From positions 14,190,097 to 14,254,096 of the forward strand of contig NC_047019.1 of the NCBI RefSeq assembly GCF_902652985.1: 64,000 nucleotides of DNA, in the 5' to 3' direction. This document shows positions 1 through 41,650 of this stretch, piece after piece. Position 1 is the first letter of the stretch; every line of letters starts with the position of its first letter. The notes under the pieces are model-generated. The model was not told the origin of the DNA. It searched no databases and worked only from the letters and a program-made list of their open reading frames with translations. The translations under genes were made by a program, and so were the position numbers. This DNA comes from Pecten maximus (lineage: Eukaryota).

Positions 1-3000
1 ATACCACACAGGGGCTTAATACTACACAGGGGCTTGATACTACACAGGGGCTAGATACTGCACAAGGGCTTGATACCACACATGGGCTTGATACCACACA
101 GGGGCTTGACACCACACAGGGACTTGATACCACACAGGGGCTTGATACTACACAGAGGCTTGATGCTACACAGGGGTTGACACTACACAGGGTCTTGATA
201 CTACACAGGGGCTTGATACTACACATGGGCTCGATGCTACATAAGGGCTAGATACTACACAGGGGTTTTATACCACACAGGGGCTTGACACTACACAGGG
301 ACGTGACATCACACAGGGGCTGGATTCGGGCTTGATACTACACTTGGGCTAGATACTACACATGGTCTTTACACTACATAGGGACTTGATACCACACATG
401 GCTTGATATCACACAGGGGCTTGATACCACACAGGGGCTTGATATTTAACAGAGGCTAGATACTACACAGGGGTTAGATACCACACAGGTGGTTGATACT
501 ACACAGGGGCTTGATACCACACAGGGACTTGATACCACACAGGGGCTAGATACCACACAGGGGTTTGATACCACACAGGGGCTTGATACTACACAGGGGC
601 TTGATACCACACAGTCGCTTGATATCACACAGGGGCTTGATACCATACAGGGGCTTGATACTACACAGGGGCTAGATACCACACAGGGGCTTAATACTAC
701 ACAGGGGCTTGATACTACACAGGGGCTAGAAACCACACAGGGGATTGATACCACACAGGGGCTTGACACCACACAGGGACTTGATACCACACAGGGGCTA
801 GATACCACACAAGGGCTTGATACCACACATGGGCTTGATACCAAACAGGGGCTTAATACTACACAGGGGCTTGATACTACACAGGGGCTAGATACCACAC
901 AGGGGCTTGATACCACACAGGTGTTTGATACTTCAAAGGGGCTTGACACCACACAGGGACTTGATACCACACATGGGCTTGATACCAAAAAGGGGCTTAA
1001 TACTACACAGGGGCTTGATACCACACAGGGGCTTGATACTACAGAGAGGCTTGATACTACACAGGGGCTAGATACCACACAGGGGCTTGATACCACACAG
1101 GGGCTAGATACCACACAGGAGCTTGATACCACACAGGGGCTTGACACCACACAGGGACTTGATACCACAAAGGGGCTTGATACCACAAGGGCTTGATACT
1201 ACACATGGGCTTGATACTACACAGTGGCTAGATACCACACAGGGGCTTGATACCACACAGGGGCTAGACACTACACAGGGGCTTGATACCACACAGGGGC
1301 TTGACACCACACATGGACTTGATACCACACAGACGCTTGATACTACACAGATGCTAGATATCTCACAGGGGCTAGATACCACAGAGGGGCTAGATACCAC
1401 ATAGGGGCTAGATACCACACAGGGGCTTGATACCACGCATGGGCTAGATAGTATACAGGGGCTAGATACTACACAGTGGCTAGATACCACACAGGGGCTT
1501 GATACCACACAGGGGCTAGATACCACAGGGGCTTGATACTACACAGGGGCTTGATACTACACAGGGGCTTGATACCACACAGGGGCTTGATACTACACAG
1601 GGGCTATATTCCACACACGGGTTTGATACCACACAGGGGCTTGATACTACACAGGGGCTTGATACCACACAGGGGCTTGATACTACACAGGGGCTTGATA
1701 CCACACAGGGGCTTGATACTACACAGGGGCTATATTCCACACACGGGTTTGATACCACACAGGGGCTTGATACTACACAGGGGCCTGATACCACACAGGG
1801 GCTTGATACTACACAGGCGCTTAATACTACACAGGGGCTAGATACCACACAGGGGCTTAATACTACACAGGGGCTTGATACTACACAGGGGCTAGATACT
1901 GCACAAGGGCTTGATACCACACATGGGCTTGATACCACACAGGGGCTTGACACCACACAGGGACTTGATACCACACAGGGGCTTGATACTACACAGAGAC
2001 TTGATGCTACACAGGGGTTGACACTACACAGGGTCTTGATACTACACAGGGGCTTGATACTACACATGGGCTCGATGCTACATAAGGGCTAGATACTACA
2101 CAGGGGTTTTATACCACACAGGGGCTTGACACTACACAGGGACGTGACATCACACAGGGGCTGGATTCGGGCTTGATACTACACTTGGGCTAGATACTAC
2201 ACATGGTCTTTACACTACATAGGGACTTGATACCACACATGGCTTGATATCACACAGGGGCTTGATACCACACAGGGGCTTGATATTTAACAGAGGCTAG
2301 ATACTACACAGGGGTTAGATACCACACAGGTGGTTGATACTACACAGGGGCTTGATACCACACAGGGACTTGATACTACACACGGGCTTGATATCAAACA
2401 GGGGCTTGATACCACACAGGAGCTTGATACTACACAGGGGCTAAATACTACACAGGGGCTTGATACAACACAGGGGCTTGATACCACACACGGGTTTGAT
2501 ACCACACAGGGGCTTGACACCACACAGGGACTTGATACCACACAGGGGCTAGATACCACACAAGGGCTTGATACCACACATGGGCTTGATACCAAACAGG
2601 GGCTTAATACTACACATGGGCTTGATACTACACCGGGGCTAGATACCACACAGGGGCTTGATACCACACAGGTGTTTGATACTTCAAAGGGGCTTGACAC
2701 CACACAGGGACTTGATACCACACATGGGCTTGATACCAAAATGGGGTTTAATACTACACAGGGGCTTGATACCACACAGGGGCTTGATACTACACCGAGG
2801 CTTGATACTACACAGGGGCTAGATACCACACAGGGGCTAGATACCACACAGGAGCTTGATACCACACAGGGGCTTGACACCACACAGGGACTTGATACCA
2901 CTCAGGGGCTTGATACCACAAGGGCTTTATACTACACAGGGGCTATATTCCACACACGGGTTTGATACCACACAGGGGCTTGATACTACACAGGGGCTTG

Positions 3001-5225
3001 ATACCACACAGGGGCTTGATACCACACAGGGGCTTGATACTACACAGGCGCTTAATACTACACAGGGGCTAGATACCACACAGGGGCTTAATACTACACA
3101 GGGGCTTGATACTACACAGGGGCTAGATACTGCACAAGGGCTTGATACCACACATGGGCTTGATACCACACAGGGGCTTGACACCACACAGGGACTTGAT
3201 ACCACACAGGGGCTTGATACTACACAGAGGCTTGATGCTACACAGGGGTTGACACTACACAGGGTCTTGATACTACACAGGGGCTTGATACTACACATGG
3301 GCTCGATGCTACATAAGGGCTAGATACTACACAGGGGTTTTATACCACACAGGGGCTTGACACTACACAGGGACTTGACATCACACAGGGGCTGGATTCG
3401 GGCTTGATACTACACATGGGCTAGATACTACACATGGTCTTTACACTACATAGGGACTTGATACCACACATGGCTTGATATCACACAGGGGCTTGATACC
3501 ACACAGGGGCTTGATATTTAACAGAGGCTAGATACTACACAGGGGTTAGATACCACACAGGTGCTTGATACTACACAGGGGCTTGATACCACACAGGGAC
3601 TTGATACTACACACGGGCTTGATATCAAACAGGGGCTTGATACCACACAGGAGCTTGATACTACACAGGGGCTAAATACTACACAGGGGCTTGATACAAC
3701 ACAGGGGCTTGATACCACACACGGGCTTGATATCACACAGGGGCTTGATACAACACAGGGGCTTTATACTACACAGGGGCTTGATACTACCCAGGGGCAT
3801 GATACCACACAGGGGCTTGATACTACACAGGGGCTAGATACCACATGGGCTAGATTGCACATGGGCTTGATACAACTCAGGGTCTTGATACAACACAGGG
3901 GCTTGATACCACACAGGGGCTAGATACCACACAGGGGTTTGATACCACACAGGGGCTTGATACTACACAGGGGCTTGATACCACACAGTGGCTTGATATC
4001 ACACAGGGGCTTGATACCATACAGGGGCTTGATACTACACAGGGGCTAGATACCACACATGGGCTTAATACTACACAGGGGCTTGATACTACACAGGGGC
4101 TAGAAACCACACAGGGGATTGATACCACACAGGGGCTTGACACCACACAGGGACTTGATACCACACAGGGGCTAGATACCACACAAGGGCTTGATACCAC
4201 ACATGGGCTTGATACCAAACAGGGGCTTAATACTACACATGGGCTTGATACTACACCGGGGCTAGATACCACACAGGGGCTTGATACCACACAGGTGTTT
4301 GATACTTCAAAGGGGCTTGACACCACACAGGGACTTGATACCACACATGGGCTTGATACCAAAATGGGGTTTAATACTACACAGGGGCTTGATACCACAC
4401 AGGGGCTTGATACTACACCGAGGCTTGATACTACACAGGGGCTAGATACCACACAGGGGCTAGATACCACACAGGAGCTTGATACCACACAGGGGCTTGA
4501 CACCACACAGGGACTTGATACCACTCAGGGCTTGATACCACAAGGGCTTTATACTACACAGGGGCTATATTCCACACACGGGTTTGATACCACACAGGGG
4601 CTTGATACTACACAGGGGCTTGATACCACACAGGGGCTTGATACCACACAGGGGCTTGATACTACACAGGCGCTTAATACTACACAGGGGCTAGATACCA
4701 CACAGGGGCTTAATACTACACAGGGGCTTGATACTACACAGGGGCTAGATACTGCACAAGGGCTTGATACCACACATGGGCTTGATACCACACAGGGGCT
4801 TGACACCACACAGGGACTTGATACCACACAGGGGCTTGATACTACACAGAGGCTTGATGCTACACAGGGGTTGACACTACACAGGGTCTTGATACTACAC
4901 AGGGGCTTGATACTACACATGGGCTCGATGCTACATAAGGGCTAGATACTACACAGGGGTTTTATACCACACAGGGGCTTGACACTACACAGGGACGTGA
5001 CATCACACAGGGGCTGGATTCGGGCTTGATACTACACTTGGGCTAGATACTACACATGGTCTTTACACTACATAGGGACTTGATACCACACATGGCTTGA
5101 TATCACACAGGGGCTTGATACCACACAGGGGCTTGACACCACACAGGACTTGATACCACACAGGGGCTTGATACTACAGAGGCTTGATGCTACAAGTGTG
5201 TGACACTACACAGGTCTTGTATCAC
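1..5225. repeat. Tandem 20-bp satellite (consensus about caggggcttgatacYacaca), about 260 monomers, with an irregular higher-order repeat
   Basis: Direct reading shows a 20-bp period. Long blocks recur (for example 50-500, 1893-2350, 3121-3570, 4741-5100) at spacings of 1841, 1229 and 1620 bp, indicating higher-order units with unit gains and losses. ORFs are open on both strands because the monomer is stop-free in several frames. Confidence 0.95.
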
Positions 5226-5659
5226 AGTCGGCTTTCTGAAGGGTGAGCTACATATGCAGATACTAAAGGGTTATCGAGAAGGGGTGATCACTACTATGGT
5301 AGTGAATGACACAGGGCTGATGGTGAGCCAATTGAGAGAACAGGGTCAATGGTCTTACACTGGTTGAATACAATCTATGATATCACAGGGCTTATCAAAC
5401 TTATATTTACAGAGTAGATACAAGTTTGATACGACATAGGTGTTGATATACACAGGGTTATACACAAATCAGGGACATTTATAACACGGCCTTGACCAGG
5501 TTATACACACCTAATTACTACCAGATATACCGGGGTGATAAACACTGAACCACACGGCATATCACAGGTTCTAAAAGGTTTTTCAATTGAACTAGGTCAT
5601 GTGACCAAGGGCTTGATAATACAGTAAATAACTGGATCACATGGGATATATACAATCAA
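5226..5659. repeat. Degenerate satellite-derived spacer, paralogous to 6866-7265
   Basis: The blocks 'cagggtcaatggtcttacact...aatacaatctat' and 'cttgaccaggt...cacctaattac...ccagatatacc...gataaacactg(a/c)accaca' appear in the same order at 6866-7265. Confidence 0.7.
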
Positions 5660-6312
5660 GGTATACAACACAGGGGCTTGATACCACACAGGGGCTAGAT
5701 ACCACACAGGGGTTTGATACCACACAGGGGCTTGATACTACACAGGGGCTTGATACCACACAGTGGCTTGATATCACACAGGGGCTTGATACCATACAGG
5801 GGCTTGATACTACACAGGGGCTAGATACCACACATGGGCTTAATACTACACAGGGGCTTGATACTACACAGGGGCTAGAAACCACACAGGGGATTGATAC
5901 CACACAGGGGCTTGATACCACACATGGGCTTGATACCAAACAGGGGCTTAATACTACACATGGGCTTGATACTACACAGGGGCTAGATACCACACAGGGG
6001 CTTGATACCACACAGGTGTTTGATACTTCAAAGGGGCTTGACACCACACAGGGACTTGATACCACACATGGGCTTGATACCAAAATGGGGTTTAATACTA
6101 CACAGGGGCTTGATACCACACAGGGGCTTGATACTACACCGAGGCTTGATACTACACAGGGGCTAGATACCACACAGGGGCTAGATACCACACAGGAGCT
6201 TGATACCACACAGGGGCTTGACACCACACAGGGACTTGATACCACACAGGGGCTTGATACCACAAGGGCTTTATACTACACAGGGGCTTGATACCACACA
6301 TGGGTTAGACAC
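5660..6312. repeat. Continuation of the 20-bp satellite
   Basis: Same monomer as 1-5225. Confidence 0.95.
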
Positions 6313-7469: not shown

Positions 7470-8640
7470 AATACAACTAACTTTACTAAGTACCTCAAAA
7501 TGATCAGTAGGGTATTTATGGTACAAGTAACAATGTGTTCTGACAAGATGAGTAGGTTTTTTATGGTACAAGTACCAATGTTTTTCGACAAGATGAGTAG
7601 GGTATTTATGGTACAAGTACCAATGTGTTCTGACAAGATGAGTAGGGTATTTATGGTAGAAGTTTCAATGTGTTCTGACAAGATGAGTAGGGTATTTATG
7701 GTACAAGTACCAATGTGTTCTGACCAGATGAGTAAGTTATTTATGGTACAAGTACCAATGTGTTCTGACAAGATGAGTAGGGTATTTATGGTACAAGTAC
7801 CAATGTGTTCTGACAAGATGAGTAGGGTATTTATGGTACAAGTTTCAATGTGTTCTGACAAGATGAGTAAGTTATTTATGGTACAAGTACCAATGTTGTC
7901 CCACAAGATGAGTAGGGTATTTATGGTACAAGTACCAATGTGTTCTGACAAGATGAGTAGGTTATTTATGGTACAAGTTTCAATGTGTTCTGACAAGATG
8001 AGTAAGTTATTTATGGTACAAGTACCAATGTGTTCTGACAAGATGAGTAGGGTATTTATGGTACAAGTACCAATGTGTTCTGACAAGATGAGTAGGGTAT
8101 TTATGGTACAAGTTTCAATGTGTTCTGACAAGATGAGTAGGGTATTTATGGTACAAGTACCATTGTTGTCCCACAAGATGAGTAGGGTATTTATGGTACA
8201 AGTACCAATGTGTTCTGACAAGATGAGTAGGTTATTTATGGTACAAGTACCAATGTGTTCTGACAAGATTAGTAGGTTATTTATGGTACAAGTACCAATG
8301 TGTTCTGACAAGATGAGTAGGGTATTTATGGTACAAGTACCAATGTGTTCTGACAAGATGAGTAGGGTATTTATGGTACAAGTTTCAATGTGTTCTGACA
8401 AGATAAGTAGATTATTTATGGTACAAGTACCAATGTGTTCTGACAAGCTGAGTAGGGTATTTATGGTACAAGAACCAATGTGTTCTGACAAGATTAGTAG
8501 GTTATTTATGGTAGAAGTACCAATGTAGTCCAACAGGTTGAGTAGGGTATTTATGGTACAAGAACCAATGTACTCTGACAAGATGAGCAGGGTATTTATG
8601 GTACAAATACCAATGAAGTGTGATGTCTGACATGATGTGT
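7470..8640. repeat. Tandem 45-bp satellite, about 26 copies
   Basis: The unit 'gacaagatgagtagggtatttatggtacaagtaccaatgtgttct' has a 45-bp period. The 15-aa periodicity in the ORFs on both strands is an artefact of this. Confidence 0.95.
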
Positions 8641-9298: not shown

Positions 9299-9737
9299 AT
9301 GGATTCCGATGAAGATGATCGTATTGGTTTTGAAAACCAGGCCAGGATGGATCCATTTGATGTGATTATCAATGATCTCATTATGGAATTAGATGCTGAT
9401 GATTTGATATTCAATGAGGTTGTCAACCTGTCAAAGACTCCACTTGGGTTTTCTCATGATTTAAAATCTGGTGAAGAATATTTCAGACTTCTGGGGAATA
9501 ACTTGGGTAAGGAAGACATGCTGGATTTTCTGATTAATGTGACAGATTATCAGAACTGGCATTGTGACTTTGGTACTGAGAGGGTAGCAGACAGACTAAA
9601 GAAATACAAAGATAAGCTTGAGAAACACAAACAACAATGGAGGAGGAAGGACATTTTTGATCCCAATTTTGTTGGAAGGGACAAAGAAATCAACTCTATC
9701 ATGGAAGGAGTGCAGAATGAACACGGCACATTCACAG
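9299..9737 (+). CDS. NB-ARC/TPR STAND NTPase gene, coding exon 1 (ATG at 9299). It encodes an N-terminal domain of about 145 aa that is a possible death-fold.
   Basis: The ORF starts at the ATG. The donor is cacag|gtaagt at 9738 and leaves phase 1. The exon ends in 'FVGRDKEINSIMEGVQNEHGTFTG', which leads into the P-loop. An acceptor-like 'catttgtag' at 9190 suggests an upstream 5'UTR exon. Confidence 0.8.
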
Positions 9738-10743: not shown

Positions 10744-10855
10744 GTGTGAGTATATTTGGCTCTGGAGGCATAGGGAAGACATCTCTGGGCAATGAAGTTT
10801 GTCGTCGACTTTGGGCCTTATCAAAAAACTGGCAAGTCATCAAAATTGATCTCAG
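10744..10855 (+). CDS. NB-ARC gene exon 2 (P-loop / Walker A)
   Basis: The acceptor is ttggcag|GT and the donor is ctcag|gtaaac. The exon encodes VSIFGSGGIGKTSLGNEVCRRLWALSKNWQVIKIDL, with the GxxxxGKT Walker A motif. Confidence 0.85.
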
Positions 10856-12589: not shown

Positions 12590-12762
12590 AGGGAAATACT
12601 CGATGGGAGATTTAATGAAGGACATTATCTTAGAGCTTCAACTGAAGGATGATGGAACAATGTCAGATGCTGATTCAGATGACCTGCAAAACAGCCTAAA
12701 AGATGCAATGGAAAGCAGGATGCAAGCTAACATTTTAAACCACCTAGGCAAAATCACACGCA
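12590..12762 (+). CDS. NB-ARC gene exon 3
   Basis: The acceptor is tgttgcag|a and the donor is cgca|gtaagtat. The phase is compatible with exon 2 (AG+A gives Arg). The exon encodes GKYSMGDLMKDIILELQ...NHLGKITR. Confidence 0.8.
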
Positions 12763-13439
12763 GTAAGTATATATTTGTGTTCATTATAAAAAGTGAGATC
12801 TTCACTTGTAATGGCTGTTAAGTACAGTCTGTGTTATGGCTAAATGTGTTACACAAAATGTCTCATCCGGTGTCATAGGTCAAGGTTGTTTCTAGTATGG
12901 GCTCTCTGACTAGATGTGGCTGTTGTCCTTCTGATATTGAATTTTCCCCCCTAAGCAACTTCTTCTCAGTATCCCAGAGACACATGGCTACAATACTGAT
13001 CCTTAAGAATATTGTGCTAAAGGGCTACCTTGCAAATATGTGAAAATTTTAATGATTTTTTTCTCAATAACAAAAAGGTCACGCGTGTCATATGTAAAAA
13101 TCCAGTTGCATAGTTGGATTCCAAAATATCCAGATGAATATAATATAGTTTACTGTGTTTTGTATTGAAGAACTGAATATCATCCATATCATCTTTGAAG
13201 TTGCATTAGTAACAGTCATGAGTGATACATGCCTATTGGACCTCTTGTTTTGTATTATTACAATGACTTTCCAAAAATCATAACTGTTATACTTTTAAAA
13301 CTTAAGTCTGGGGAAATAATACGATGATTTCTTTTCAAAGTGTAAAACAATGAATCAATCTAATTTAGATTTGCATGCAATTAATTACCATTGTAGAATA
13401 CTATCTCTAATGTTTGTTTGTTTTTCTCGATCACAACAG

Positions 13440-13546
13440 GAACGATTGTCATGCTGGATAATGTTGATGATATTATCCACAAAAATGAAAAAGGATTTAT
13501 ACCATTTGTCAAAATGCTATTGAATGCAATACAGACAAAATGCAAG
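13440..13546 (+). CDS. NB-ARC gene exon 4 (Walker B)
   Basis: The acceptor is cacaacag|g and the donor is caag|gtaaga. The exon encodes TIVMLDNVDDIIH..., with the hhhhDD Walker B motif. Confidence 0.85.
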
Positions 13547-13749: not shown

Positions 13750-13899
13750 GTCCGAGTTATCATTACAAGTCGTGTAAGCCTCCAGCGTGACAGATTTGGA
13801 GGAACCTTGACAGAACTGAGGGATCTCCTATCTGAAGTGGAAGTTCGACAGCTGCAGGTAGACGATGCTAAGGAACTGATCAGAAAGTGTACTCCAAAA
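13750..13899 (+). CDS. NB-ARC gene exon 5 (RNBS-B / sensor-1-like TSR motif)
   Basis: The acceptor is tcctag|g and the donor is aaaa|gtaaga. The exon encodes VRVIITSRVSLQRDRFGG...; in-frame, 150 nt. Confidence 0.85.
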
Positions 13900-14408
13900 G
13901 TAAGATCCGTTATCAGAAAATTAAATAATTGATGACATTATCAAGAGGGTGAGATTGATGCAAATAACATGTTTGAATGAAAATAATTTAGTCACTAAAA
14001 TAGGTAATTATCTCCCCTCAAAAATGAATCTTATTTTGTTACATTACTGTTACCTATAGTAGAGTGATGGGAAATAATTCAGAATCAATAATCAGAAACT
14101 CGAAATCGATTAATTATCGATTATAATCGCTTTTCTAAATTTGGCAAGGAGTTGTCCTTTTGCTGAAAATTTATGTTCATCTCAAATGAATTTATTACAT
14201 ATCTTAGCCTTTGTTATCAATGTTTTTATTATTGAACACAAACACAGCATTTAACGGTTGTTAATTCATTTGAATCTCCTTAATCGATGAACCTATTGGT
14301 AAAAGATAAGATCATCCACTTCTTGGTTCAGTAATATTGCAAAAATATGCGAAGCCATAGCTTTACGAACACACTTCCAGATTCCACTTTCCGATTTATT
14401 GCCTTTTT

Positions 14409-15460
14409 AGCTCACCTGGTCCGAAGGACCATGGTGAGCTTATGCCATACTGTAGCATCTGTCGTCCGTCGTCCGTCCGTCCGTCCGTCCGTCAACAATT
14501 TACTTCTTCTTCATAACCACAGATCAGAATTTGACCAAATTTGGTCAGAAGCATCCCTATGGGGTGGGGGACTCAAAATTGTACAAATGGTGGGGCTGAC
14601 CCCCCAGGAGGCTATATTGATATAAATAGCTTCTTCTCTGAAACAAACAATGGATATCACTCATATTTGCCTGGTAGCATCACTATGGGGTGGGGATTCA
14701 AAATTGTAAAGATGATGGGGCTGACCCCCAGGGGCCTGAGGGGCGGGGCAAAATGTGGTCAATTTGGCTATATTGAATAAACGACTTCTTTTCTGAAACT
14801 GAGCAATGGATATCGCTCATATTTGCCTGGTAGCTAGCATCCATAGGGAGTGGGGATTTAAAATTGTACAAATGGTGAGGCTGACTCCCAGGGGGTCTGA
14901 GGGACGGGGCAAAGATGGGTCAATTTCGCTATATTGATATGAACAACTTCTCCTCTGAAACTAAGCAATTCATATCACTCATATTTGACTGGTAGCATCC
15001 CCTTGGGTTAAGGATTCAAAATTGTACAAATTACGGGGCTGACCCCTGGAGGCTGAGGGGCGGAGCCCAAAGGGGTCAATTTGGCTAAATTGATATGAAC
15101 AACTTCTTCTCTGAATCAACTCATATTTGTCTGATAACATCCTTTTGGGTAGGGATTCAAAATTTTATAAAAGAAGGAACTGACCCAAAGGGGGCAGAGG
15201 GCGGGGTCAATTGGTTTAAACAACTTCTTTTCTGAAACTAATCAATGAATATCACTCACATATGTGTCGTAGTATCCTTATGGGGTTGGGCAAAAAGTCA
15301 ATTTCATTTCATGGATTAATGCATTTTTTAGCATAAAAATCTCACATACCCATATAAAATGCCTATAATATATTGACATAGCAATACCAGTGACAAATAT
15401 ACTTAAGCATCATTTTTGTTTCATATCATGAAAACCAGGTGAGCGATACAGGGCCTCTTG
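14409..15460 (-). mobile_element. Helentron-like non-autonomous element (HINE), copy 1, in NB-ARC intron 5
   Basis: It has a terminal hairpin 'agctcacctggtccgaaggaccatggtgagct', a (gtcc)n microsatellite at 14458-14492, and an internal tandem array of about 150 bp with 5 copies. The other terminus is 'ccaggtgagcgatacagggcctcttg'. It is flanked by T on both sides, consistent with a TT target. Confidence 0.65.
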
Positions 15461-15844
15461 TTTTAAAATTGTCATAGATGATTGTTTATTTTTATTTATC
15501 TTCTTTTTTTTTTTTTAACATTTAAACATTTCAATTTGTATTAAATGTTTAAACAGTACATTTTTCAACAGGTACGCTCAACCAAAATTCTCCTCATGGG
15601 TAGTGGTGTTCAGTCACATGACTGGGGATTATTCCAAAGTCATGTAACTTAATATTATTTTTCATCTCTTGCAGATTGGTAGATTACTTAATGCTTTAAT
15701 ATTTCGATTCTATCAGTCAAAGCTCTCATTATTTTCCAGAAAATTAAAACAAGTAGCAACACATTTGTATACTGGTTAGATTTATATCTGATATCCGATT
15801 GTGAAAAATATAATACTCTATACCTGATTATGTGTCTCCTGCAG

Positions 15845-17420
15845 GGGTTGGTATCAGAAGAGGAGTGTTATTGCCTGGTTAAACTGACTGAGAGGAACCC
15901 CCTGGCTTTACGTACAATATGTAGTATTCTGAAAAACTGCTGCAGACAGGTAAAGCCAGCTGAGGTGATTAGACATCTGAGGAGCAATGAAGGAAAACTG
16001 TCCATGGTTGGTATGGAAAAATGCCTCCAGGAGAGTTTCGATAGACTTGAAGATAGCATGAAAAATATTCTGATACAGTTGACATTGTTCAAGACCTCAC
16101 CTTTTGACATCAATGCTGCCAGTGAAGTTTTAAGGGCTGACAATACTCCAAAACCACAAATTTTGCTGACAAAGATGAATCTATTCCATTTGAAAAGCCG
16201 TCACCTTATTGAAGTCCAAGATACGACCATTCAGACAGAAGGAAACCTGAAACAGAACATCCAGCCCAGACCTGAAGAATTGGGAAACATCAACAGAAAT
16301 GTCCTGTATTCCCTACATCCCCTGGTGTTTGAGTTTCTAACCAAACAAAAAAGTCAAATGTCAGCAGTATTGATGCCTGCAAAAATAAGGTTTTTTGAAT
16401 ACATGGAAAGAATTATTGGAATAATCGGAAAGGAGCAAGAAAATTATTATTATAGCACTCAGCTGTATCTAAGAGAGTATCACGTACATATTCAGAGCTA
16501 TTTTGACATTACATTAGAGCTTCAGGGAGATATTGAGACCAGAAGAGTAAATATGACCACATCAAACCGAATTTTGGAGATAGGCCGACGAGTCCTTAAT
16601 CAGGACGGGCAGCTACGATGGCTTCAGTGGGTTACAGATAGAGCTGAACGAAATGGCCAAGTTGATCAGTGGGTCTTCTACCGTGGCTACATGATACAAT
16701 TGCTGACAGAAATGGATACAATTTCTGACATACCAAGCATCATGGATGTTACCGAAAGAAAACTTGATATGAAACTGAGGAGACCTGATACTGGTATGAA
16801 AGTAGCTTTAGGAAATTATCACCATAAAAAGGCAATGTACTTCAAAAAAATAGATAATCGACAGAAGGTCATCGAAAACTTGGAAAAGGCTAGGCAGTAT
16901 TTAGAGGATGAGGACATCAGACCAATGACAAACATGGTTATGATACTTGCCAATGTTTACAACGACCTTGGGTGTTCGTATTATCTACATGATTCAGAGA
17001 AGTGCAGAAGCTATCATGAAAAAGCGATTTCAAAATCGTTAGAAGAACACCCAGATGTGGACATGTTCAAAAACAATCTTGCTGTTTGTCAGTTAAAAGA
17101 TATATTGGACCAGACTTTAGAGCAGTCATCCCGAGATGAGAACATCGAAGAGACACTTGAACATTTCAGCAATGTAATAGCAAAAGGAAGACGGCAAGGC
17201 ACAGATAATACAGATTCACACACAGTAGCTCTGAGAAACAGATCAACATTGTATCTGCACTTAAAACGGTACGAGGAAGCATATTCTGATGCTAAAAAGA
17301 GTCTTGAAGTGCGAAAAAAGATTTTGAAGGACCCGCATGAGGACTTGACTTTGAGCTGTAGCCACGTGGCCCGTATTTTGTATAACTGGGGCGACCAGCA
17401 GATACGCAGTGGGAATATAG
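15845..17420 (+). CDS. NB-ARC gene exon 6: GLPLA-like motif, winged-helix/helical region and TPR-like repeats
   Basis: The acceptor is ctcctgcag|G. A 1.6-kb ORF encodes 'TERNPLALRTICSIL' followed by TPR-like helices (for example ALGNYHHKKAMYF..., ALRNRSTLYLHLKRYEEAYSDAKKSLEV). The donor is atag|gtttgt at 17421 (phase 1). Confidence 0.8.
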
Positions 17421-17798: not shown

Positions 17799-17977
17799 GC
17801 CTAGGGTTCCCCCACCTTAAGGAAGCTATCCATTTCTACGATGAGGCTCTAACAAAGATAAAGAATGGAGGGTTATCCATAGACCATGAAGAATATGCTG
17901 AAATAAAGAAATTCCACTTGAAAGCTGTAAACAGAGTAGACACAAAAAGAAAACAGCACTTGGAACAGGAATACCAG
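17799..17977 (+). CDS. NB-ARC gene exon 7 (TPR-like)
   Basis: The acceptor is tttcacag|gc and the donor is ccag|gttagt. The exon encodes LGFPHLKEAIHFYDEALTKIKNGG...; the phase is consistent. Confidence 0.7.
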
Positions 17978-18459: not shown

Positions 18460-18940
18460 GATCTGGTATACAGAAGATCTAGTATCTTATTTGATAGAGA
18501 GGATAGTGGACATTCCTCGGATGGTGGTAGTGACGAGCAGGGTTCCAGTACCGATGATCTGATGAGTGACATACAGACAGACAGTTCACAGGACGAACAG
18601 ATCAAAACCTCTCGGGATGAGGGAACGTTAAAGGAGATGCCAGTAGATACTCAGAAGACTTTAGATGACACCATGAACTTCCTATCTCCAATGTCCAAGG
18701 GTAAAGGCAGATATGAACATCAAGATTCTGGATATGTTATGGGAGGCAGTACCAGTTCCTTTCGTAGTTCCACATCTCGTCGTTTGTCCAGACAAGAATC
18801 TTTTGAAGTTCTTGATCGACCAAGCATGACATCAAACACTTCGGGATCTTCAGAAGATGTTTTTCCTCCACCTAGTCCACTAGATTTGTCTATGAATGAA
18901 TTAATTGCAAAAGTTTCAAGAAAGTCTTCCAGAAGCAAAG
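18460..18940 (+). CDS. NB-ARC gene exon 8 (acidic, Ser-rich disordered tail)
   Basis: The acceptor is tgttacag|G and the donor is aaag|gtatct. The exon encodes DLVYRRSSILFDREDSGHSSDGGSDEQGSSTDDL.... Confidence 0.7.
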
Positions 18941-19221
18941 GTATCTAAATGATGTTAATAGTGAAAGGTGAAAAAATCCATTATGACATTTCTTTATAAG
19001 TTTTGAAGATCAAATATTACAACAGAAAACATCACTACAAATTACAGTTTGATCAACATCTATTTATATATTAAGTATCTAACATATCGAGAAATCCTGA
19101 TGGTTCTGATGAAACATCCCTATAGTAGAAACATGTGAACAACACTCTCCAATAAATTGGACCATTGAATGAATCTCCATATTTGCTCACCGTTTTTTTT
19201 ACATATATGACCTGATTTATT

Positions 19222-19882
19222 AGCTAACCTGGTCCGAAGGACCAAGGTGAGCTTATGCCATACCGTGGCGTCTGGCGTCTGGCGTCCGTCGTCCGTCGTC
19301 CATCCGTCTGTCAACAATTGACTTATTTGACTTCTTTTTCATAACCGCTGATCGGAATTTCACCAAATTTGGTCAGAAGCATCCCTATGGGTAGGGGACT
19401 CAAAATTGTACAAATGGTGGGGCTGACCCCCCCAGGTGCCTGAGGGGTGGGGCCAAATGTGGTCAATTGAGCTATATTGATATAACGACTTCTCTGAAAC
19501 CAAGCAATGGATACAGCTCATATTTGTCTGGTAGCACCTACTTGGGGTAGGAATTCAAAATTGTACAAATGGTGGGGCTGACCCCCTGGAGGGCTGAGGG
19601 GCGGGGCCAAACAGGGTCAATTTGGCTAAATTGTTATAAACAACTTCTCCTCTGAAACTAAGCAATGGATATTGCTCATATTCGCCTGGTAGCATCCCCT
19701 CGGTGTAGAGATTCAAAATTGTACAATTGGTGAGGCTGACCCCCTGGGGAATGTTCATGTACCCATATAAAATGCTTATGATATATTGACATAGCAATAC
19801 CAGTGACAAATATACTTAAACATAGTTCTTGTTTCATATCTCATGAATCCAGGTGAGCGATACAGGCCCTCTGGGCCTCTTG
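19222..19882 (-). mobile_element. Helentron-like element copy 2, in NB-ARC intron 8, ending 36 bp before the acceptor
   Basis: It has the same hairpin (agctaacctggtccgaaggaccaaggtgagct), a (gtcc)n tract, tandem subrepeats and the 'caggtgagcgatacaggccctctgggcctcttg' terminus. Confidence 0.65.
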
Positions 19883-19918
19883 TTGTTTTTGTGAGACCTC
19901 ATGTACTTATATTAACAG

Positions 19919-20220
19919 GGAGGAGTCGTTCTCAACAGAGCGATATACCTAACAGGGAAGAGAAACTTTCCAGAGGTCACAGTGACACGACAATTCTTCA
20001 AACCACAGGGAAAGCAGACTGCACTACATCTTTTGATCAAAGGCAGGCTTCGATAGAAGGTAAAGATGAACCTATCAAAGTCCCAGAGAAAGATGAAGGT
20101 CAAGGTGACATGGAGAGTCCTTCAGTACCTGTCAAAGTGACAGGGAAACGAAAGGGTATAGAGGACACAGAAAGTCCGGTGGTACCAGCCAAGTTGACAA
20201 AGGAGGATTTGGGTCATTAA
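19919..20220 (+). CDS. NB-ARC gene terminal exon (stop TAA at 20218-20220)
   Basis: The acceptor is attaacag|gg, 36 bp after a Helentron-like insertion. The phase closes the 3519-nt CDS at exactly 1173 codons including the stop. Confidence 0.7.
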
Positions 20221-20437
20221 GATGGATAATGTCCTGATAAAACAGCCAAGGTCAAAATGGAGGAAAGCTGTCATGGTAACAATGATACAGTAAATTGGGT
20301 TGGACCAGTCATGGTCACAAAGGCATAGAGATGAACCATTCAAAATCCTGTTTGAGTGGTCAAGGTCACAAAGGAGGATAGAGGTCAAGTGACTCAAAAT
20401 ACTGATTCCTGTTAAGAGTTTCAGGGAAGGGTAAAAA

Positions 20438-24590: not shown

Positions 24591-26307
24591 GCAACAGTAC
24601 ATAATGAAATGGCTGTCTAATGGATCACGCTGCTGGTAATTTTAACTATAATTGTATTTCAAATATAATTCTAGAATCTGTATGTTTAAAGATGCACAAG
24701 TTATAGCTAGCTTGCAATATGTTTGCCTGCAAAGCTCTTTCCATTAATACTAACGACAAATGCCTAACCCAGACAATCAAATACCATGTTAAAAACTAAC
24801 CCACTTTATACCCGGTATAAAAGATGTTTCAACGTAACCAAATGTGTATTTAGAGAGGTTTTAAAATGACATGCAGTGTCTTCAGAAAACAGTTCAGTGT
24901 TCCCCATTTGATAAATTCATCAGAAACATTCCATCCTTTTGACAACAATAATTAAGTGATTTACAGGGAGATTAAATACACAAGTTCTCAGAAGGAGTAA
25001 ATCAAAGCATTATAATTATGGTTAATTTTTGACAGCTCAAAATATAGCACCCTCAACCAATTATTTCTGATATTTTGATATCAATCAGTTTGGTTATTTT
25101 AACAATTTTGGGTACAGTACTTTGCATTAGACAGCAGAAGTGTTTCGATACTAGTCCATATTTGACAGTATAAGTACAAATGTACCAGTAATTCAGCATG
25201 GTAATGATATTTTGACCATTATGAGTATTTTGACGGTTCTGGGTAATTTTAAGGTATTGAGTAGTTTGAAAGTACTGGGTATTGTGACTGTACTGTATAT
25301 TTTGATATGAATTTGTAATTTGATAGTAGATGTTTTACGGTATGAATTATTTAAGAATTAATTGCAGTTTGTTTCATTCAAATTTTCATTATTTGTATAT
25401 CATTTTCATATGATTATCAAAAACGTCCACATCCCTTACCAATAAAACAAATTCATAAAAGTGCTGATTTTTTTATTCCAAATGGGTTAATTTGTGTTAT
25501 TTCTATAATGGCAGCTGCATTTTGAAGGAAGTAATCAAAGCTTGTTCTTGTTAATCTCAACTGATTAATTGGTCTTGTCCTTGTTTATTGACTACGTTTT
25601 ATTTTCAGGCGTAATGAGTGTTTTATCAATAAGAATTTTTAATATACAATTGCAGCATTTTGATAATGTTGATACATGATTTTGTTAACCTGAAAAAAAA
25701 TCAACCCACGACGAAGTTATATATGTTAATATATGACCATATAGTTGGTCGGTAAAAAATTGTTTAATTATTAAATGACTGTTTTGATTTTTGATAATGA
25801 TGAAATGAATGCAAATAACACTTGTAGATGTTATGATAGACTAATTTGTGAAGCATTTGTAAATATTACATTATATCATTTAAACATGTCACATTTAATA
25901 CTGTAATTCTTAAGGTATCTTAATAATCGTATAATCATAGTATTGCCTCTCATGTTTCAAAAGCGTGAAAGATATTTTGCATTATTTGACAGGGGGAAGT
26001 AATTCATAATAAATTTATTGTTAAAAACCCAGTCAGCCAGCATTTAAAACCAGCTTTTTTCTTTTATGGCTGGTCAGTGTTATTTTTTAGCAGAATCATA
26101 TGACACTATTGCAGCCAATCAGAAAAAGTAAAATATAAGATTTTATTATAATATTATAAGGCAAATAGTTGTATTAGTTTTAAGAGAAATGTCCTGATTA
26201 GTTGCATTTTTGTGAAAAATAAGCAGTACAAACAGAAAGCTTTTGTGTGAATTTTCTTCAGTTGAGCTTAATTAACAGATCATTGGTTCAAGTTTGAAAT
26301 GTGAACA

Positions 26308-26453
26308 GGCCCCGCTTGTATAAAAATACTTAAGTGTTGAGATTTCCTCAGGTTACTTGAGGAATTTTTATACAAGCCATATTTGAGGAAATCTCTAAGG
26401 AAATCTCAACTAAAGAAAATCTCAAGTTGAGATTTCTTTATGCAAGCGGGGCC
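26308..26453. mobile_element. 146-bp MITE-like hairpin element
   Basis: It has about 18-bp TIRs 'ggccccgcttgtataaa' and 'tttatgcaagcggggcc', and its interior forms a long palindrome. Confidence 0.55.
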
Positions 26454-26544: not shown

Positions 26545-27059
26545 ACCTGGTGTGGTGTCCGTCTGTCCGTCTAGCGTCATTTTTTTCCAATTAAACAAAT
26601 TCTTTTTAATACCCAAAAGGCCCAGAGTACTGATATTGGGCCTATAGCATGCTGGGATGAAGGGCTACCATGTATATTAAAATGAATGACCTTGACCTAC
26701 ATTCAAGGGCACAGGGATTAAAGAGGCTAAAATCTTATGAATGACTTCTTCACAGAAACCAAGAGGCCCAGAGTACTGATATTGTAGCATGCTGGAGTGA
26801 AGGGCCAGACAGTTTGTTTAAATTAATGACCTTGACCTAAATTCATGGTCACAGGGGTCAAAATATTTTAAAATAAAATCTTTAAACAATGATTTCTCGA
26901 TGACCATGGGACGCAGATACCTGATATTCTGCCAGTGGTACAAAATTCATTTAAATCAAAATATAGTGGTTATCAGCATTTATTCAACATAAATGATCTA
27001 GAACAATTTCGAAGTTACATCAAAAGCAGGTGAGTGATAAAGGCCCATTGGGCCTCTTG
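26545..27059 (-). mobile_element. Helentron-like element, truncated at the hairpin end
   Basis: It has a (gtcc)n-like start 'ggtgtccgtctgtccgtc', 3 tandem units of about 155 bp, and the conserved terminus 'caggtgagtgataaaggcccattgggcctcttg' followed by TT. Confidence 0.5.
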
Positions 27060-27367
27060 TTTATTAGCACATTATACATGTAATCTGGTTTATGTATATC
27101 ATAAGCATGTAAAATAGATCTTCAGAATAGCTATATCGTTAGCTGCACATATAGGTATCATTAGCACATCATGATAGCTATATCATTACCACATTATTAT
27201 AGCATATAAAAGCAATAACATAGTTCAAGTTCTTTATTGACTTTGAGTCTTCTGACTCATCAGTATCATATACATACATAATATACTTATTTACATAACA
27301 TTGACAACATCAAACAAAGCAAGAAAACATAAATTCGTTCCAGAGACAATATACTCGGAGAACATAA

Positions 27368-29467: not shown

Positions 29468-29934
29468 ACATAATATTTTATTGACTGTAAGTGTAGACAG
29501 GGAGGATTATCAGGGAACAAGAGATTGGAAAATGAGAGAGAATTGAGAATACCTGGGAAATGAGGAAATGGGAACAGGGGCTATACTGACTACATTACTC
29601 GTTCCCCCTTTATCAGAAAAAATATGTCCAGATATTTCCCGAATTACTTAGAAACCATTATAATTTGTAGCTACGAAATAAATACATGTATTCTTCGTTG
29701 TTGTTCCGTTGCTAAGCCTACTTTGCTCTGTGGTACGTAACAAGAGGTCCAGAGGCCTACATCGCTCGCCTGGATAATTCACTAACCATGGAAAATACTT
29801 GTCAAATATTTACCTACTTTTTAAGCTGCCTCTCTAACTAAATGTGGACCAAATCCTGCCAGTTTTAAAGAATTTGCTGTATTTCCGCTATTAGAACCCA
29901 ACCCTCCGGCTCATGATTATACAAAATTATATCT

Positions 29935-34081: not shown

Positions 34082-34731
34082 GTAGGAGGAATGAGTCATC
34101 GCTATAGCGAGTCCAGTAGACTCGTCTTAGACTGAACTTACTAGCAGGGGAAAGTAATCTTGGTAACGTTGGATCAGGCGACGTTGACGTCATTTCGTCA
34201 TCCATTTTCCCGCTGAAACTTCGATCGCGTAGGAATATTTACAAAGTTGTAAGGTTATTTTTGATTGGCTAATAGATTGATCAGAATTCTAATATTGTCT
34301 GTGCAAAAATAGAATTAAATTTTGCACAGGCAAAAATAATTTTTCATATGCAAAAATATTTAATTATGACACACTATTTTTAAGCTTCCCGCGCCAAACA
34401 AGTACGTCATTCTAAAACTCGGGTTAGAGCATGTAACTGAATGGAAGGTCACATCACAGATTCATTCAAATGTTGGCATGCATCTACTGTACATGTAGCA
34501 CCAGTATTCATTAATAAATATCAAAAAGAAAATAACTACTTTTCCCATCCAACTCCTCTCTGGCAATTCCCCTGCAAATGGTTGGCCAGTACCATAATTC
34601 GATTTCGCCGGCATCCATCTTTGGTGACCGTAGTAAATATTACGGTCACCACTGTGTACACACTGATTATTGTAAAAGTACATGAATTAGAATTATATGT
34701 GTTGCATTATAAATCTGTTTCAGATGGTAAG

Positions 34732-34810
34732 ACACTGTTGGTGAACCCCGACTGTAATGCTGTAATTCTACAGGATTACGTGAGGAGGTCGTGTGGTATC
34801 AAGTCTACAG
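34732..34810 (+). CDS. Small basic protein gene, exon 2 (the acceptor is uncertain: 34732 is phase-consistent; 34724 after tttcag is not)
   Basis: The donor is tacag|gtaggt at 34811. The exon encodes TLLVNPDCNAVILQDYVRRSCGIKST, which repeats the LVN-x-DC...DY motif of exon 1. A total CDS of 642 nt (3x214) holds only with the 34732 start. Confidence 0.45.
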
Positions 34811-34875
34811 GTAGGTCTCTATAATGGCTTTATAACGTCAAACTGAGCAACGAATTAATAGTCGGTATAAATAAA

Positions 34876-37800
34876 CAAGAGGCCCATGGGCCTTAACGGT
34901 CATCTGACAAACACTTACACTTACAGCAGGGACACACCCCTCAATCCAGCATTATTACCATAAATTATTTATCGCAGCCAGTTATGTTTTAGATCAAATT
35001 TGGTTTTTATCCATTTAGCTTGTCCAGGAAGAGCAGCATCATAAAGCAAAATTTTAGCCAAGTTCCCATTTTTGGGGCATGCCCCTCTGTCCCAATAGGT
35101 CAGACAAGACTCATTTATATCAATTAGGATTGCCTTTCCCCAATGATGTTTCATACTAAATATAGTTGTAATCAATTAAGGCATTAAGGAGGAATTGCAT
35201 TTTAAAGAAATATTTAACCTAAGCGCTCCTTTTGCCCCATCTTTTTTTCCCCAGGGGTCAAACCTGTCTCATTAAAAAATATGATTGCCGTCACCTTATG
35301 TTTCACATCAAATTAGGTTGTAATCCACCAAAAGGTTAGGGAGGATTAGGATTTAACAGCAAATATTCACCAAAGTTCCCCTTTTGGGGCCCTGCCCCTC
35401 AGGCCCCAGGGGTCACACTAGCCTCGTTTATATAAAATATGACCACCCTTCCCAAAGGATGTTTCACACCATATTTCGTATTAATCCACCCAAGGGTTAG
35501 AGAGAAGTAGGATTTATAGCAAAAATTCACCAAAGTTCCCCTTTTGGGGCCCCGCCCCTCTGGCCCTAGGGGTCAAACCAGCCTCATTTATATAAAATAT
35601 GATTGTCCTCCTCCAATGATGTTTCACACCAAATTTGGTAATAATTCACTATGGGGGTTAGGAGGAGTAGTATTTTAAAGCAAAATTTCATCAAAGTTCC
35701 CCTTTTGGGGCCCTGGGCCCATATTCATAAAAAAACTTAAGTTAAGTATTTCACTTAAGAAAATACTTAAGTAGGACATTTGTACTTAAGTACTAAAATA
35801 AACTTAAGTATTTACTTAATTCAAGGTTTTATCTTAAGTTGTATTCATAAAACTACTTAAGCTTAAGTATTACTTAAGTTTTTACTTAAAGTTAAGTAAC
35901 GTCACGAGGATGTTTAACTTCCTTTAAAAATACTTAAGTAAATACTTAACAACTCAGGTGAAAGATGTCTTCACGAAATCGACAGAAATCAAATTGTTTT
36001 TAAGAAAAAAAATCATTAACTTCAGATTTTGTTGTATTCCATCATTTAAAACAAGATGTAAAGGTTTGAATCGAAGATGGAGGAGTCAATCTCACTGTCG
36101 TTAAGGCCCATTACGAAGTCAATACTACAACGACACGGAGCAATTGTAGTTTATAAGAAACATACCCATATACCAATCAAATTCTATTTAGATAAAACTT
36201 CATTTTTGTTTCTCTTGCTGACTTTGACAAAGCAGAAATACTGCCTCAAAGTTTTATTGTATCTTTTATTCATTAATCTAAAAAAATGTATATCTATAGA
36301 GTTCTTACCTGTGTATTAAAAAACATTGTGGTTACTTGTACTTTAACTTAAAACCCGTTCATGTGCATTCCAGCCCTGTCATGTAGTACTCCCCTGCTTT
36401 GATAACGAAACGAAAGTTTTAAATAACAGTTGATTGTTGTGACAGTTCTAGCATGCTTGGGGGTGGGATTTTACAGATCGTACAATGTAACTAGGGGTTT
36501 GATATGTACATTTCAACTGATGTTTGGTTTAGTGGAAATCAACTAAAACGTACTTGTTCTCCTTGACTCTACGATGAACACGATATGTGCATTTTTGGCC
36601 TGAACGACGAGGTTAGTCTAATTTTCGTGCATTCTTCCGACTCTCTCCTGATTAATACATTTGATCTGTTCAATCTGCCGGCAACCTGAACCCACGCTTG
36701 CCTATTTGCAGATGCCGACATTCCGTCCTTAAATCGTCCACGTATGACATGTTTACTTTCACTTGTAAACATGTACTAGCCTCACCATCGCCAGACATTC
36801 GTCCTTTGTCCAGTTTGGTCATCTCATCTTTTTTGCTGTTGCCATTTCCGGATTCTGATCGTCTTGGAATGCCAGGAACGCCGGTGCCAAATTTCACGTT
36901 TTACGAAAAACATCACGCAGCTACTTAACAACAACATAGCAACTACATGAAATACTTAAATGTTTATACTTAGCTAAGTATGTACTAAGTAAATACTTAA
37001 GTCGTTTATGAATAGTACTTAAGTTCAAACTTGAGTTTTATTTAACTAAGTAAAATATTTATAGTTAAGTATAACTTAAGTCAAACTTAAGTATTTAACT
37101 TAAGATTTTTTATGAATATGGGCCCTGCCCTTCTGGCCCCAGGGGCCACACCAGCCTAATTTATATAAAATATGACCACCTTCCCCCAATGATGTTTCAC
37201 ACCATATCTTGTTGAAATCCACCAAAGGGTTAAGGAGGAGTAGGATTTTATAGCAAAATTTCATCAAAGTTCCCCTTTTGGGGCCCTGCCCCTCTGGCCC
37301 CAGGGGCCACACCAGCCTCATTTATATAAAATATGACCACCCTCCCCCAATGATGTTTCACACAATATCTGGTTGAAATCCACCAAAGGGTTAAGGACGA
37401 GTAGGATTTTATAGCAAAATTTCATCAAAGTTCCCTTTTTTTGGCCCGTCACTCTGGCCCCAGGGCTCACACCAGCCTCATTTATATAAAATATGACCAC
37501 CCTCCCCCAATGATGTTTCACACCAAATTTAGTTGTAATCCACCAAAGGGTAAAGGAGGAGTAGGATTTTATAGCAAATATCCACCAAAGTTCCCTATTT
37601 AGGGCCCGCGAGGCCCCTCTGGCCCTAGGGGTCAGACCAGCCTCGTTTATATAAAACATGATTGTCCTCCTCCAACGATGTTCCACACCAAATTTTGTAA
37701 TAATCTACTTTTGGGTTTTGGAGGAGTAGTATTTTAAAGCAAAATTTCATCAAAGTTGCCCTTTTGGGGCCCCGCATCTCTGGCCCCAGGGGTCACACTA

Positions 37801-38477: not shown

Positions 38478-39125
38478 AATAAATACTAATATTCTTTGAT
38501 CTCTGTCCTTTCCAGCAGTTACTTACATCTGGTAGCTCTAATATATCACCTGATGATAATATATCTTAACAAAAATTCATAATTGTAACATTTTATCTAC
38601 TAATAAATTGAATTAAAACCCGACATAACTCAAATCTGTAAGTACACTCCCTGCACTATATTTTTTTGCTTGGTGTGATGATGTTTAAGCTTGAGTGTTA
38701 ATTTGAACAAATGTGTGCATCGAGTTATTATATGTACTGTATGTTAAAAAGAAATGGTGTGTAAATGTGTGTAACTTACCAGGTAAATGAGTATGTATTT
38801 GTGGGTCATGTTCCAATTTTCGTCGATTTTGATCAACATGTATTCACCGGATTCACAGGAAAAGGCTTGTATAGGCTTGCATGTTGTCTAATCATTTTGT
38901 ACAATTTGTGAAATAGAATTTATTGAAATGAAACGATTAAAGCAAGTATTTTAATTTCGATAGTCCATCGCTGGTATGCAGTATAGAACAAGTATATACC
39001 ATTGTGTACATATCTCATGTTTTACTTTGAAATCTACAGCACTATTGATTAATCTCACAAATATAAATTTCAATATTAATGAAAAAACATTATCTAATAT
39101 GAACTGTTAACGTGTGTTGGTACAG

Positions 39126-39245
39126 TGACAATCGACTTTAGTGATGAAAATGCTGTTCTGACGGAGCTGTTCAGTAAACCCCCACAGGAGAACATGTTTG
39201 ATTTCTTCATGCCACGCAGCACATTTGTACTGGTACAGATTGACC
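39126..39245 (+). CDS. Small basic protein gene, exon 3
   Basis: The acceptor is gttggtacag|tg and the donor is gacc|gtaagt. The exon encodes VTIDFSDENAVLTELFSKPPQENMFDFFMPRSTFVLVQID. Confidence 0.65.
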
Positions 39246-41624: not shown

Positions 41625-41650
41625 AACAAAGGATGTCTAATGTTTTACAG

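Follow-up and report, generated by a model that had tools for sequence, protein, structure and literature searches.

Non-autonomous Helentrons as probable intron passengers next to two 3' splice sites of Pecten maximus

Two repeat copies in a 64,000-nt stretch of Pecten maximus DNA (hereafter: the window) end close upstream of the acceptors of two neighboring genes. These copies are probably old insertions of a HINE (Helentron-associated interspersed element) that are tolerated as intron passengers next to two genuine 3' splice sites. The first of these sites (AG at 19917-19918) opens the terminal exon of an NB-ARC/TPR gene, the second (AG at 41649-41650) exon 5 of a CXorf65 homologue.

Anatomy of the HINE copies

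The DNA of the window is minisatellite-rich, with a GC content of ~35-40%. When the window was searched by self-BLAST with positions 19151-19960 as query, the copy at the NB-ARC acceptor was matched on the plus strand at ~14404-15458 (78% identity) and on the minus strand at ~41630-40647 (83%). Together, the three diverged copies represent one HINE family (A), with pairwise identities of 78-83%. Alignment of the ends and flanks showed that the sequence common to all three runs from TTAGCT to CTTGTT, or more fully TTAGCT(C/A)ACCTGG...GGGCCTCTTGTT, and the family termini read TTAGCTCACCTGG...GGGCCTCTTGTT. Copy 1 (14407-15462, plus strand) is inserted in sense orientation in intron 5 of the NB-ARC gene, 382 nt from the acceptor, and its 3' palindrome is partly deleted. 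Copy 2 (19220-19884, plus strand; 19222-19882 if the terminal Ts are dropped) is likewise sense and located within intron 8 of the same gene. Copy 3 (40647-41626, minus strand) is antisense to the CXorf65 gene and lies at the downstream end of intron 4, with its 5' hairpin end (41624 without the Ts) toward the acceptor of exon 5.

The typical modules can be followed along the plus strand of copy 2. The 5' subTIR GCTAACCTGG (19223-19232) and the IR CAAGGTGAGC (19243-19252) are followed by a (CGTC)n-type microsatellite (~19266-19312) and a 158-bp repeat array (19400-19747). The right flank contains the 3' subTIR CCAGGTGAGC (19849-19858) and the palindrome AGGCCC-TCT-GGGCCT (19864-19878), after which the terminal TT is reached. 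In all three family A copies, the 5' subTIR GCTCACCTGG is accompanied by the complementary IR CCAAGGTGAGC, and the two form a hairpin (DNA folds of -9.9 and -10.5 kcal/mol; z of -4.1 and -5.5). The 3' subTIR is found near each 3' end on the element strand, and each 5' end bears the reverse complement; the motif has 13 matches in the window, versus 2.06 expected. The 3' palindrome has a 6-bp stem, and in copies 2 and 3 it is separated from the terminus by 6 nt. Tandem Repeats Finder (TRF) also reported microsatellites in the two other copies, namely (CGTC)n in copy 1 (14463-14493) and a GAC-rich unit of 18 nt in copy 3 (41541-41577). The central arrays have a period of 156-158 bp and 2.2-3.3 repeat units in each copy (the two others at 14610-15115 and 40956-41483).

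The original prediction placed a third copy at 34876. The position was right, but the sequence there belongs to a related family (B), of which a minus-strand copy has its 3' end at this point. This 3.6-kb copy (34874-38479) is antisense within intron 2 of the CXorf65 gene. Its 34874 end carries the 3' palindrome AAGGCCCATGGGCCTCTTGTT (AAGGCCC-AT-GGGCCT) and the subTIR GGTCATCTGAC, and the same element contains 160-bp arrays (35298-35715 and 37120-38372) and a microsatellite (~38395-38432), all on the minus strand. Further HINE 3' ends are located at 27027-27061 (plus strand) and 29738-29775 (minus strand), and a HINE fragment at ~13225-13250. Altogether, at least seven HINE 3' ends were counted in the window and the terminal motif GGGCCTCTTGT occurs 8 times, versus 0.67 expected, so HINEs are dense here. 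An autonomous Helentron ORF (Rep/helicase plus AP-endonuclease) was not found within the 64-kb window.

The copies of both families are bordered by TT on both sides and their flanks are unduplicated. Judged by this anatomy, the repeats are non-autonomous Helentrons (HINE) of the bivalve pearl/Cg_HINE type, in line with the predicted element class (Helentron-type, non-autonomous). The scallop copies are new, unnamed members of a well-described class of bivalve elements.

The closest parallel in structure is Cg_HINE, an element from the Pacific oyster (Vojvoda Zeljko et al. 2020, PMC7492417; Repbase Helitron-N*_CGi). It contains a GTCY microsatellite and a right flank of ~60 bp, and is found at T-rich/TT sites and in introns, with no target-site duplication. 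Its module order is identical to that of the Pecten copies: 5' subTIR and IR, microsatellite, variable spacer, ~160-bp repeat array, and a right flank with 3' subTIR and palindrome. In addition, both hosts have copies in either orientation and in gene introns, and related families that share their flanks and differ in their diverged repeats, as do A and B. However, one host is an oyster and the other a scallop, and the likeness described here is one of structure. The position of Cg_HINE relative to splice signals was not considered in the oyster paper (PMC7492417). By the descriptions quoted there, the pearl elements (Gaffney et al. 2003) and MgE from the HSP70 introns of Mytilus (Kourtidis et al. 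2006) are comparable as well: these are MITE-like bivalve elements with up to 6 repeats of ~160 bp that were later re-classified as non-autonomous Helentrons, and MgE was found inside introns, as are the Pecten copies. The DINE-1/HINE elements known from Drosophila and further invertebrates (Thomas et al. 2014, PMC4067079) share the ~13-bp subTIRs, the nearby IR, the microsatellite, the 3' stem-loop and the preference for TT, and the T-strings at their boundaries belong to the element. In contrast, DINE-1 is another sequence family, and central repeats as long as 158 bp characterise bivalve HINEs more than core DINE-1.

Two genuine acceptors and their distance to the elements

The NB-ARC/TPR gene consists of nine plus-strand exons: exons 1-5 at 9299-9737, 10744-10855, 12590-12762, 13440-13546 and 13750-13899, exons 6-8 at 15845-17420, 17799-17977 and 18460-18940, and the terminal exon 9 at 19919-20220 (G-RSRSQQ...EDLGH, stop TAA). 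All introns are GT-AG, and the 3519-nt frame encodes 1172 aa. Intron 8 (18941-19918, phase 1) has the donor AAG|gtatct and the acceptor ttaacag|G; it measures 978 nt, or ~313-315 nt without the HINE. The translation of the nine exons, built by hand, is identical letter for letter to RefSeq XP_033740036.1 (LOC117327245, P. maximus). A Pfam NB-ARC domain was detected across the first six exons (E 2.1e-9, over the curated cut-off), together with TPR repeats.

An exhaustive HMMER search recovered orthologues with 64-66% identity. The syntenic ones, from Ylistrum balloti (XP_060065437.1) and Mizuhopecten yessoensis (XP_021359449.1), align end to end, and the exon 8/9 junction is included: ...SRSK-G-RSRSQQ... 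in Pecten corresponds to ...KVE-G-RSHSQQ... and ...TSKR-RSRIHQ... in these orthologues. Mizuhopecten and Ylistrum retain exon 9, of which Argopecten shares the C-terminal part. The Ylistrum acceptor ttgacag|GAAGAAGC matches attaacag|GGAGGAGT of Pecten in both phase and codon position, and the terminal-exon acceptor of Mizuhopecten reads ctgttaacag|GAAGAAGC.

The idea of an unannotated gene or pseudogene was dropped in view of the HMMER orthologues and the exact RefSeq protein. Frames of 130-140 codons do occur in non-coding parts of the window, and exon 9 was also considered as such a chance ORF; its conservation in orthologues and the RefSeq identity speak against this. When the 533-aa ORF of exon 6 was used in a word-index protein search, no match was obtained, and a search with an alignment of the C-terminal exons was negative too. 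Exact-product look-ups for further contigs or transcripts (ORF 19843-20220, the exon-6 ORF, P0001, P0008 and P0160) were equally without a match.

The CXorf65 homologue is encoded on the plus strand as well. Its coding start is the ATG at 32823, followed by exon 2 (34724-34810, donor CAG|gtaggt at 34810|34811), exons 3 and 4 (39126-39245 and 39905-39979), exon 5 (41651-41764) and exon 6 (42251-42387). All of its introns are phase 1, including intron 4 (39980-41650), which is 1671 nt long (~691-693 nt without the HINE) and ends in the AG that opens exon 5. Between exon 2 and the stop codon, the assembled protein agrees at every residue (100% identity) with the P. maximus 'uncharacterized protein CXorf65 homolog' (XP_033740039.1/XP_033740040.1), and it matches the full profile of Pfam PF15874 (E 1.8e-16). 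The exon 4/5 junction PFLE|RKLRQRD is kept in the five other bivalve homologues that were aligned, among which are Argopecten, Ylistrum and Mytilus. As to the isoforms X1 and X2, a difference at the HINE-adjacent acceptor was ruled out because both encode the same protein. With models that match RefSeq proteins and junctions that are conserved in other scallop genera, both acceptors are genuine, as had been proposed.

The predicted distances were also reproduced. The T-less end of copy 2 (19882) is 36 nt from the G of its AG and that of copy 3 (41624) is 26 nt from the G of its own; counted from the outermost T of copy 2 and the outermost base of copy 3, the values become 34 and 24 nt. Element B is 66 nt away from the last base of exon 2 (63-66 nt, depending on the definition of the end). 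The remaining copies, copy 1 and B, are separated from the acceptors by 380-650 nt.

The chance of such proximity was calculated by a placement test on the four full intronic insertions, with pre-insertion introns of 890, 315, 711 and 693 nt. Two or more of the four would come to lie at most 35 nt from the acceptor with a probability of 0.021 for uniform placement and 0.026 when placement is restricted to TT (sense copies) or AA (antisense copies). A proximity beyond chance is only suggested by these values, since the case was a post hoc choice and the window contains at least seven HINE 3' ends.

A genome-wide bias might be envisaged, whereby HINE integration prefers the T-rich tracts upstream of 3' splice sites and placements are enriched there. 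The preference for TT or T-rich targets is published (PMC7492417; PMC4067079), and two of four insertions lie at most 35 nt from an acceptor (P ~0.02-0.03). Copy 2 also behaves as the original prediction had it, with the T-rich tract serving as a TT target: it is sense, its flanks are GATTTAT[T] and [T]GTTTTTGTG, and the last 35 nt of its intron hold 19% of the TT sites, versus 11% by length. For copy 3, however, this part of the prediction does not apply. Both copy 3 and B are antisense to the gene, and their TT target therefore corresponds to AA on the gene strand (GTTTA|ACAAAGG for copy 3), not to the polypyrimidine tract. Furthermore, the restriction to TT/AA sites left the joint probability unraised (0.026 versus 0.021), the sample comprises four post hoc insertions, and copy 1, B and the HINE ends of Mizuhopecten are hundreds of nucleotides away from acceptors. 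A bias of this kind is consequently rather unlikely.

Branch-point motifs and splicing

All 13 acceptors of both genes were scanned for the branch-point-like motif yUnAy. The candidates are typically located 18-30 nt from the exon (CTAAT at 21, 29 and 30 nt, CTGAT at 18 nt and CTTAT at 23 nt). For the NB-ARC acceptor the best-placed motif is CTCAT (19898-19902, plus strand), whose A19901 is 18 nt before the exon. This motif is found downstream of copy 2 and outside the element, so a motif that may be usable has been spared. Upstream of exon 5 of the CXorf65 gene, two motifs are present on the plus strand. CTAAC (41623-41627; A41626, 25 nt before the exon) straddles the junction of copy 3 and its flank: CTAA is the reverse complement of the 5' terminus TTAG of copy 3, and the final C is a base of the flank. 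CTAAT (41637-41641; A41640, 11 nt before the exon) is part of the flank and unusually close to the exon. The prediction that an element this close must supply or spare the branch point holds by its own logic, and in the motif scan a yUnAy motif survives outside the element at both acceptors. By their motifs, all of these adenosines are candidate branch points.

If copy 3 integrated at A|A, the pre-insertion sequence may have been TTAAC, in which case the element would have cut and rebuilt a branch motif. The first two bases of CTAAC (C and U) are predicted to be paired in the 14-bp terminal hairpin of copy 3 in the pre-mRNA, which counts against the use of this motif.

For the origin of this arrangement, we infer that the HINE copies were mobilised in trans by a Helentron Rep/helicase-endonuclease and inserted at TT dinucleotides without target-site duplication. 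In the Pecten lineage they would have entered short introns (~300-700 nt) of the neighboring NB-ARC/TPR and CXorf65-homologue genes, where two copies would have settled just ahead of a 3' splice site, at distances of 34 and 24 nt. The NB-ARC acceptor would have retained a branch-point-like yUnAy and the AG downstream of copy 2. At the CXorf65 acceptor one yUnAy would have been left downstream of copy 3 and a second one regenerated at the junction of element and flank. Both acceptors would thereby stay in use, as in the RefSeq models, and the copies are proposed to persist because the signals of each splice site are still in place. Going by the RefSeq models and the conservation across species, splicing at both acceptors is probably unaffected, although partial intron retention or minor cryptic isoforms would be compatible with the same evidence.

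An active role of the insertions in splicing has to be weighed against this passenger role. The stable hairpin and the CAG|GTGAGC at 30-65 nt upstream of an acceptor could impair or tune the use of the 3' splice site, by intron retention, cryptic exons or U1 decoy effects. Every copy indeed carries a near-consensus 5' splice-site heptamer in its subTIR/IR, either CAG|GTGAGC or AAG|GTGAGC (element-borne GTs on the gene strand at 19247-19248, 19853-19854 and 41618-41619), and predicted RNA hairpins abut the branch-point region. With such heptamers and stable hairpins near the acceptors, a modest effect on splicing is possible. The polypyrimidine content from -23 to -4 is mediocre too, with Y = 0.60 for NB-ARC exon 9 and 0.45 for CXorf65 exon 5, but the other acceptors of both genes are equally modest (0.45-0.75). 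Moreover, RefSeq lists a single protein per gene that is made via these acceptors, the two CXorf65 isoforms encoding the same protein. Modulation of splicing by the insertions is accordingly very unlikely.

Even more speculative, and highly improbable on the motifs at hand, is the notion that HINE ends are pre-adapted to the neighborhood of splice sites by mimicking splicing signals. Read in either direction, the subTIR/IR comes close to a perfect 5' splice site. The antisense 5' terminus reads ...CAG|GTGAGCTAA, and any pyrimidine that follows it completes CTAAY, a consensus branch-point motif, at the junction downstream. Both antisense copies show this motif, as CTAAC (41623-41627) for copy 3 and as CTAAT (38476-38480) for B. 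If the notion were true, antisense insertion at A|A within a TTAAC branch site would regenerate the branch point, which could explain the tolerance of copy 3 at 24 nt from its acceptor. HINEs could then seed branch points, cryptic exons and even intron boundaries genome-wide in bivalves.

Antisense Alu elements near primate 3' splice sites offer an analogy, as they are also abundant, non-autonomous intronic elements with splice-signal-like ends that are either tolerated or exonised. Alu, however, is a retroposon whose antisense poly-T supplies a polypyrimidine tract, whereas the HINE ends resemble a 5' splice site (subTIR) and a branch-point motif (antisense 5' terminus).

Lineage, age and significance of the insertions

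The gene order NB-ARC, CXorf65, Npa1 is kept in Argopecten irradians, Ylistrum balloti and Mizuhopecten yessoensis. The orthologues of CXorf65 intron 4 in Mizuhopecten, Argopecten and Ylistrum showed no similarity to HINE family A or B, and neither did the terminal NB-ARC intron of Mizuhopecten and Ylistrum (that of Argopecten falls outside the compared locus). In the Argopecten and Ylistrum loci that were compared, such similarity was found nowhere. The lengths of CXorf65 intron 4 are 384 nt (Mizuhopecten), 833 nt (Argopecten) and 3375 nt (Ylistrum), next to the 1671 nt of Pecten, and the terminal NB-ARC intron is 538 nt long in Mizuhopecten versus 978 nt in Pecten. The Mizuhopecten locus does contain HINE termini elsewhere, which are 91-97% identical to those of Pecten. 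The family is therefore common to scallops, yet the insertions themselves are, from the orthologous introns checked, specific to the Pecten lineage.

A base-exact empty site was not recovered by global and local alignments with the Argopecten, Ylistrum and Mizuhopecten introns (~44% identity, near random), because the introns are too diverged between the genera. The pre-insertion junctions are predicted to approximate CCTGATTTATTGTTTTTGTGAGACC and GAAATGTTTAACAAAGGATGTC, give or take one or two Ts/As.

The relative age of the copies can be estimated from their private substitutions in ~289 ungapped flank columns outside the arrays, which amount to 3.8% for copy 1, 6.6% for copy 2 and 1.7% for copy 3. 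With its 6.6%, copy 2 looks old. The value of copy 3 is close to the heterozygosity of the species, 1.71% (PMC7191990), and owing to this youth copy 3 is possibly polymorphic. Along these lines, one or both insertions could segregate in P. maximus as presence/absence polymorphisms, in the form of hemizygous structural variants, instead of being fixed, and their lack in the orthologous introns of the other genera would agree with this. In addition, ~10.7% of the P. maximus genome is estimated to be hemizygous, a figure of Calcino et al. 2021 as quoted in bioRxiv 10.64898/2026.02.10.705023. Nevertheless, polymorphism is unlikely: copy 2 combines its private substitutions with a mutated subTIR and copy 1 has lost its palindrome, so both look old and immobile, and the copies are only 78-83% identical to one another.

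In the king scallop genome paper, repeats outside the preconfigured RepeatMasker libraries make up 16.7% of the genome, and Helitrons are never mentioned (PMC7191990). For annotation, king scallop repeats can now be labelled as HINE/Helentron non-autonomous elements, and both adjoining gene models are confirmed. The arrangement would gain greater weight only if HINE ends were enriched at 3' splice sites genome-wide in an orientation-specific manner, or if transcripts were to use the element-borne signals. As it stands, it indicates that an acceptor can keep working with ~0.7-1 kb of DNA that contains hairpins and satellite repeats at a distance of 24-34 nt, if a branch-point-like motif remains.

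Splice-like signals in the HINE ends

The subterminal inverted repeat (subTIR) of HINE, the non-autonomous Helentron, and the nearby complementary inverted repeat (IR) contain a near-consensus 5' splice site, CCAG|GTGAGC (or CAAG|GTGAGC). In the window, such donor-like sites are located at 19243-19252, 19849-19858, 41614-41623 and 15435-15444, and at 14410-14419 on the reverse strand. Since the 5' subTIR and the IR form a 5' hairpin, the donor-like sequence lies on the gene strand whichever way a copy points, and every intronic copy therefore carries one to three such sites. A second signal is observed in both antisense HINEs, where the reverse-complemented 5' terminus (...CTAA) and the adjoining flank base together make up a branch-point-like motif at the downstream junction (CTAAC/CTAAT, 41623-41627 and 38476-38480).

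Other copies and repeats in the window

Additional HINE 3' ends or fragments are found at 27027-27061 (+) and 29738-29775 (-), both intergenic, and at 13225-13250 (+), where intron 3 of the NB-ARC gene is hit at a distance of about 190 nt from the acceptor of exon 4. The 3.6-kb HINE-B, a copy of the related family B, holds about 1.4 kb of unrelated sequence (35720-37100) between its two 160-bp arrays, and CTTAAGT motifs are abundant in this spacer. The two-array layout may reflect a nested insertion or two elements that were joined.

Five large minisatellite arrays occupy about one quarter of the window in total: 1-6304 (18 bp x 355), 7502-8615 (45 bp x 25), 49208-52166 (40 bp x 74), 53021-53830 (46 bp x 18) and 59290-63998 (42 bp x 112). 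Long spurious ORFs arise from these arrays.

The NB-ARC gene and its orthologues

The NB-ARC protein of Mizuhopecten extends beyond the point where the aligned Pecten protein ends, and because of this the Pecten stop codon may represent a recent truncation. Directly downstream of this stop, in frame, a degenerate C-terminal motif repeat can be observed (20221-20400; KVTKEDRGQ versus KLTKEDLGH). In the Ylistrum balloti orthologue, about 3 kb of short tandem repeat fill the terminal intron (positions 1-3060 of the orthologous locus), and this repeat translates as SRHLSILTSQCCFI... in all frames.

For Mizuhopecten, GenBank lists a 1240-aa model, OWF47468.1, that merges the NB-ARC gene with the CXorf65 homologue into a 60-kb gene (10001-70159 of the orthologous locus) and has both Pfam domains. 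As the two genes are separate in RefSeq and in other species, this fusion is probably an annotation chimera.

A word-indexed protein search with a 533-aa query returned no matches, although the RefSeq protein from which the query derives is present, as an exact match, in the same collection, together with orthologues that share 64-66% identity; an empty result of this kind is weak evidence of absence.

HINE in other scallops

HINE termini are also present in the orthologous locus of Mizuhopecten yessoensis (34609-34645, 36352-36403, 24803-24835, 26279-26314, 46543-46578 and 70892-70930 of that locus). They share 91-97% identity with the Pecten copies, the interiors about 70-77%. The HINE family is thus common to different scallop genera, and its ends are strongly conserved.
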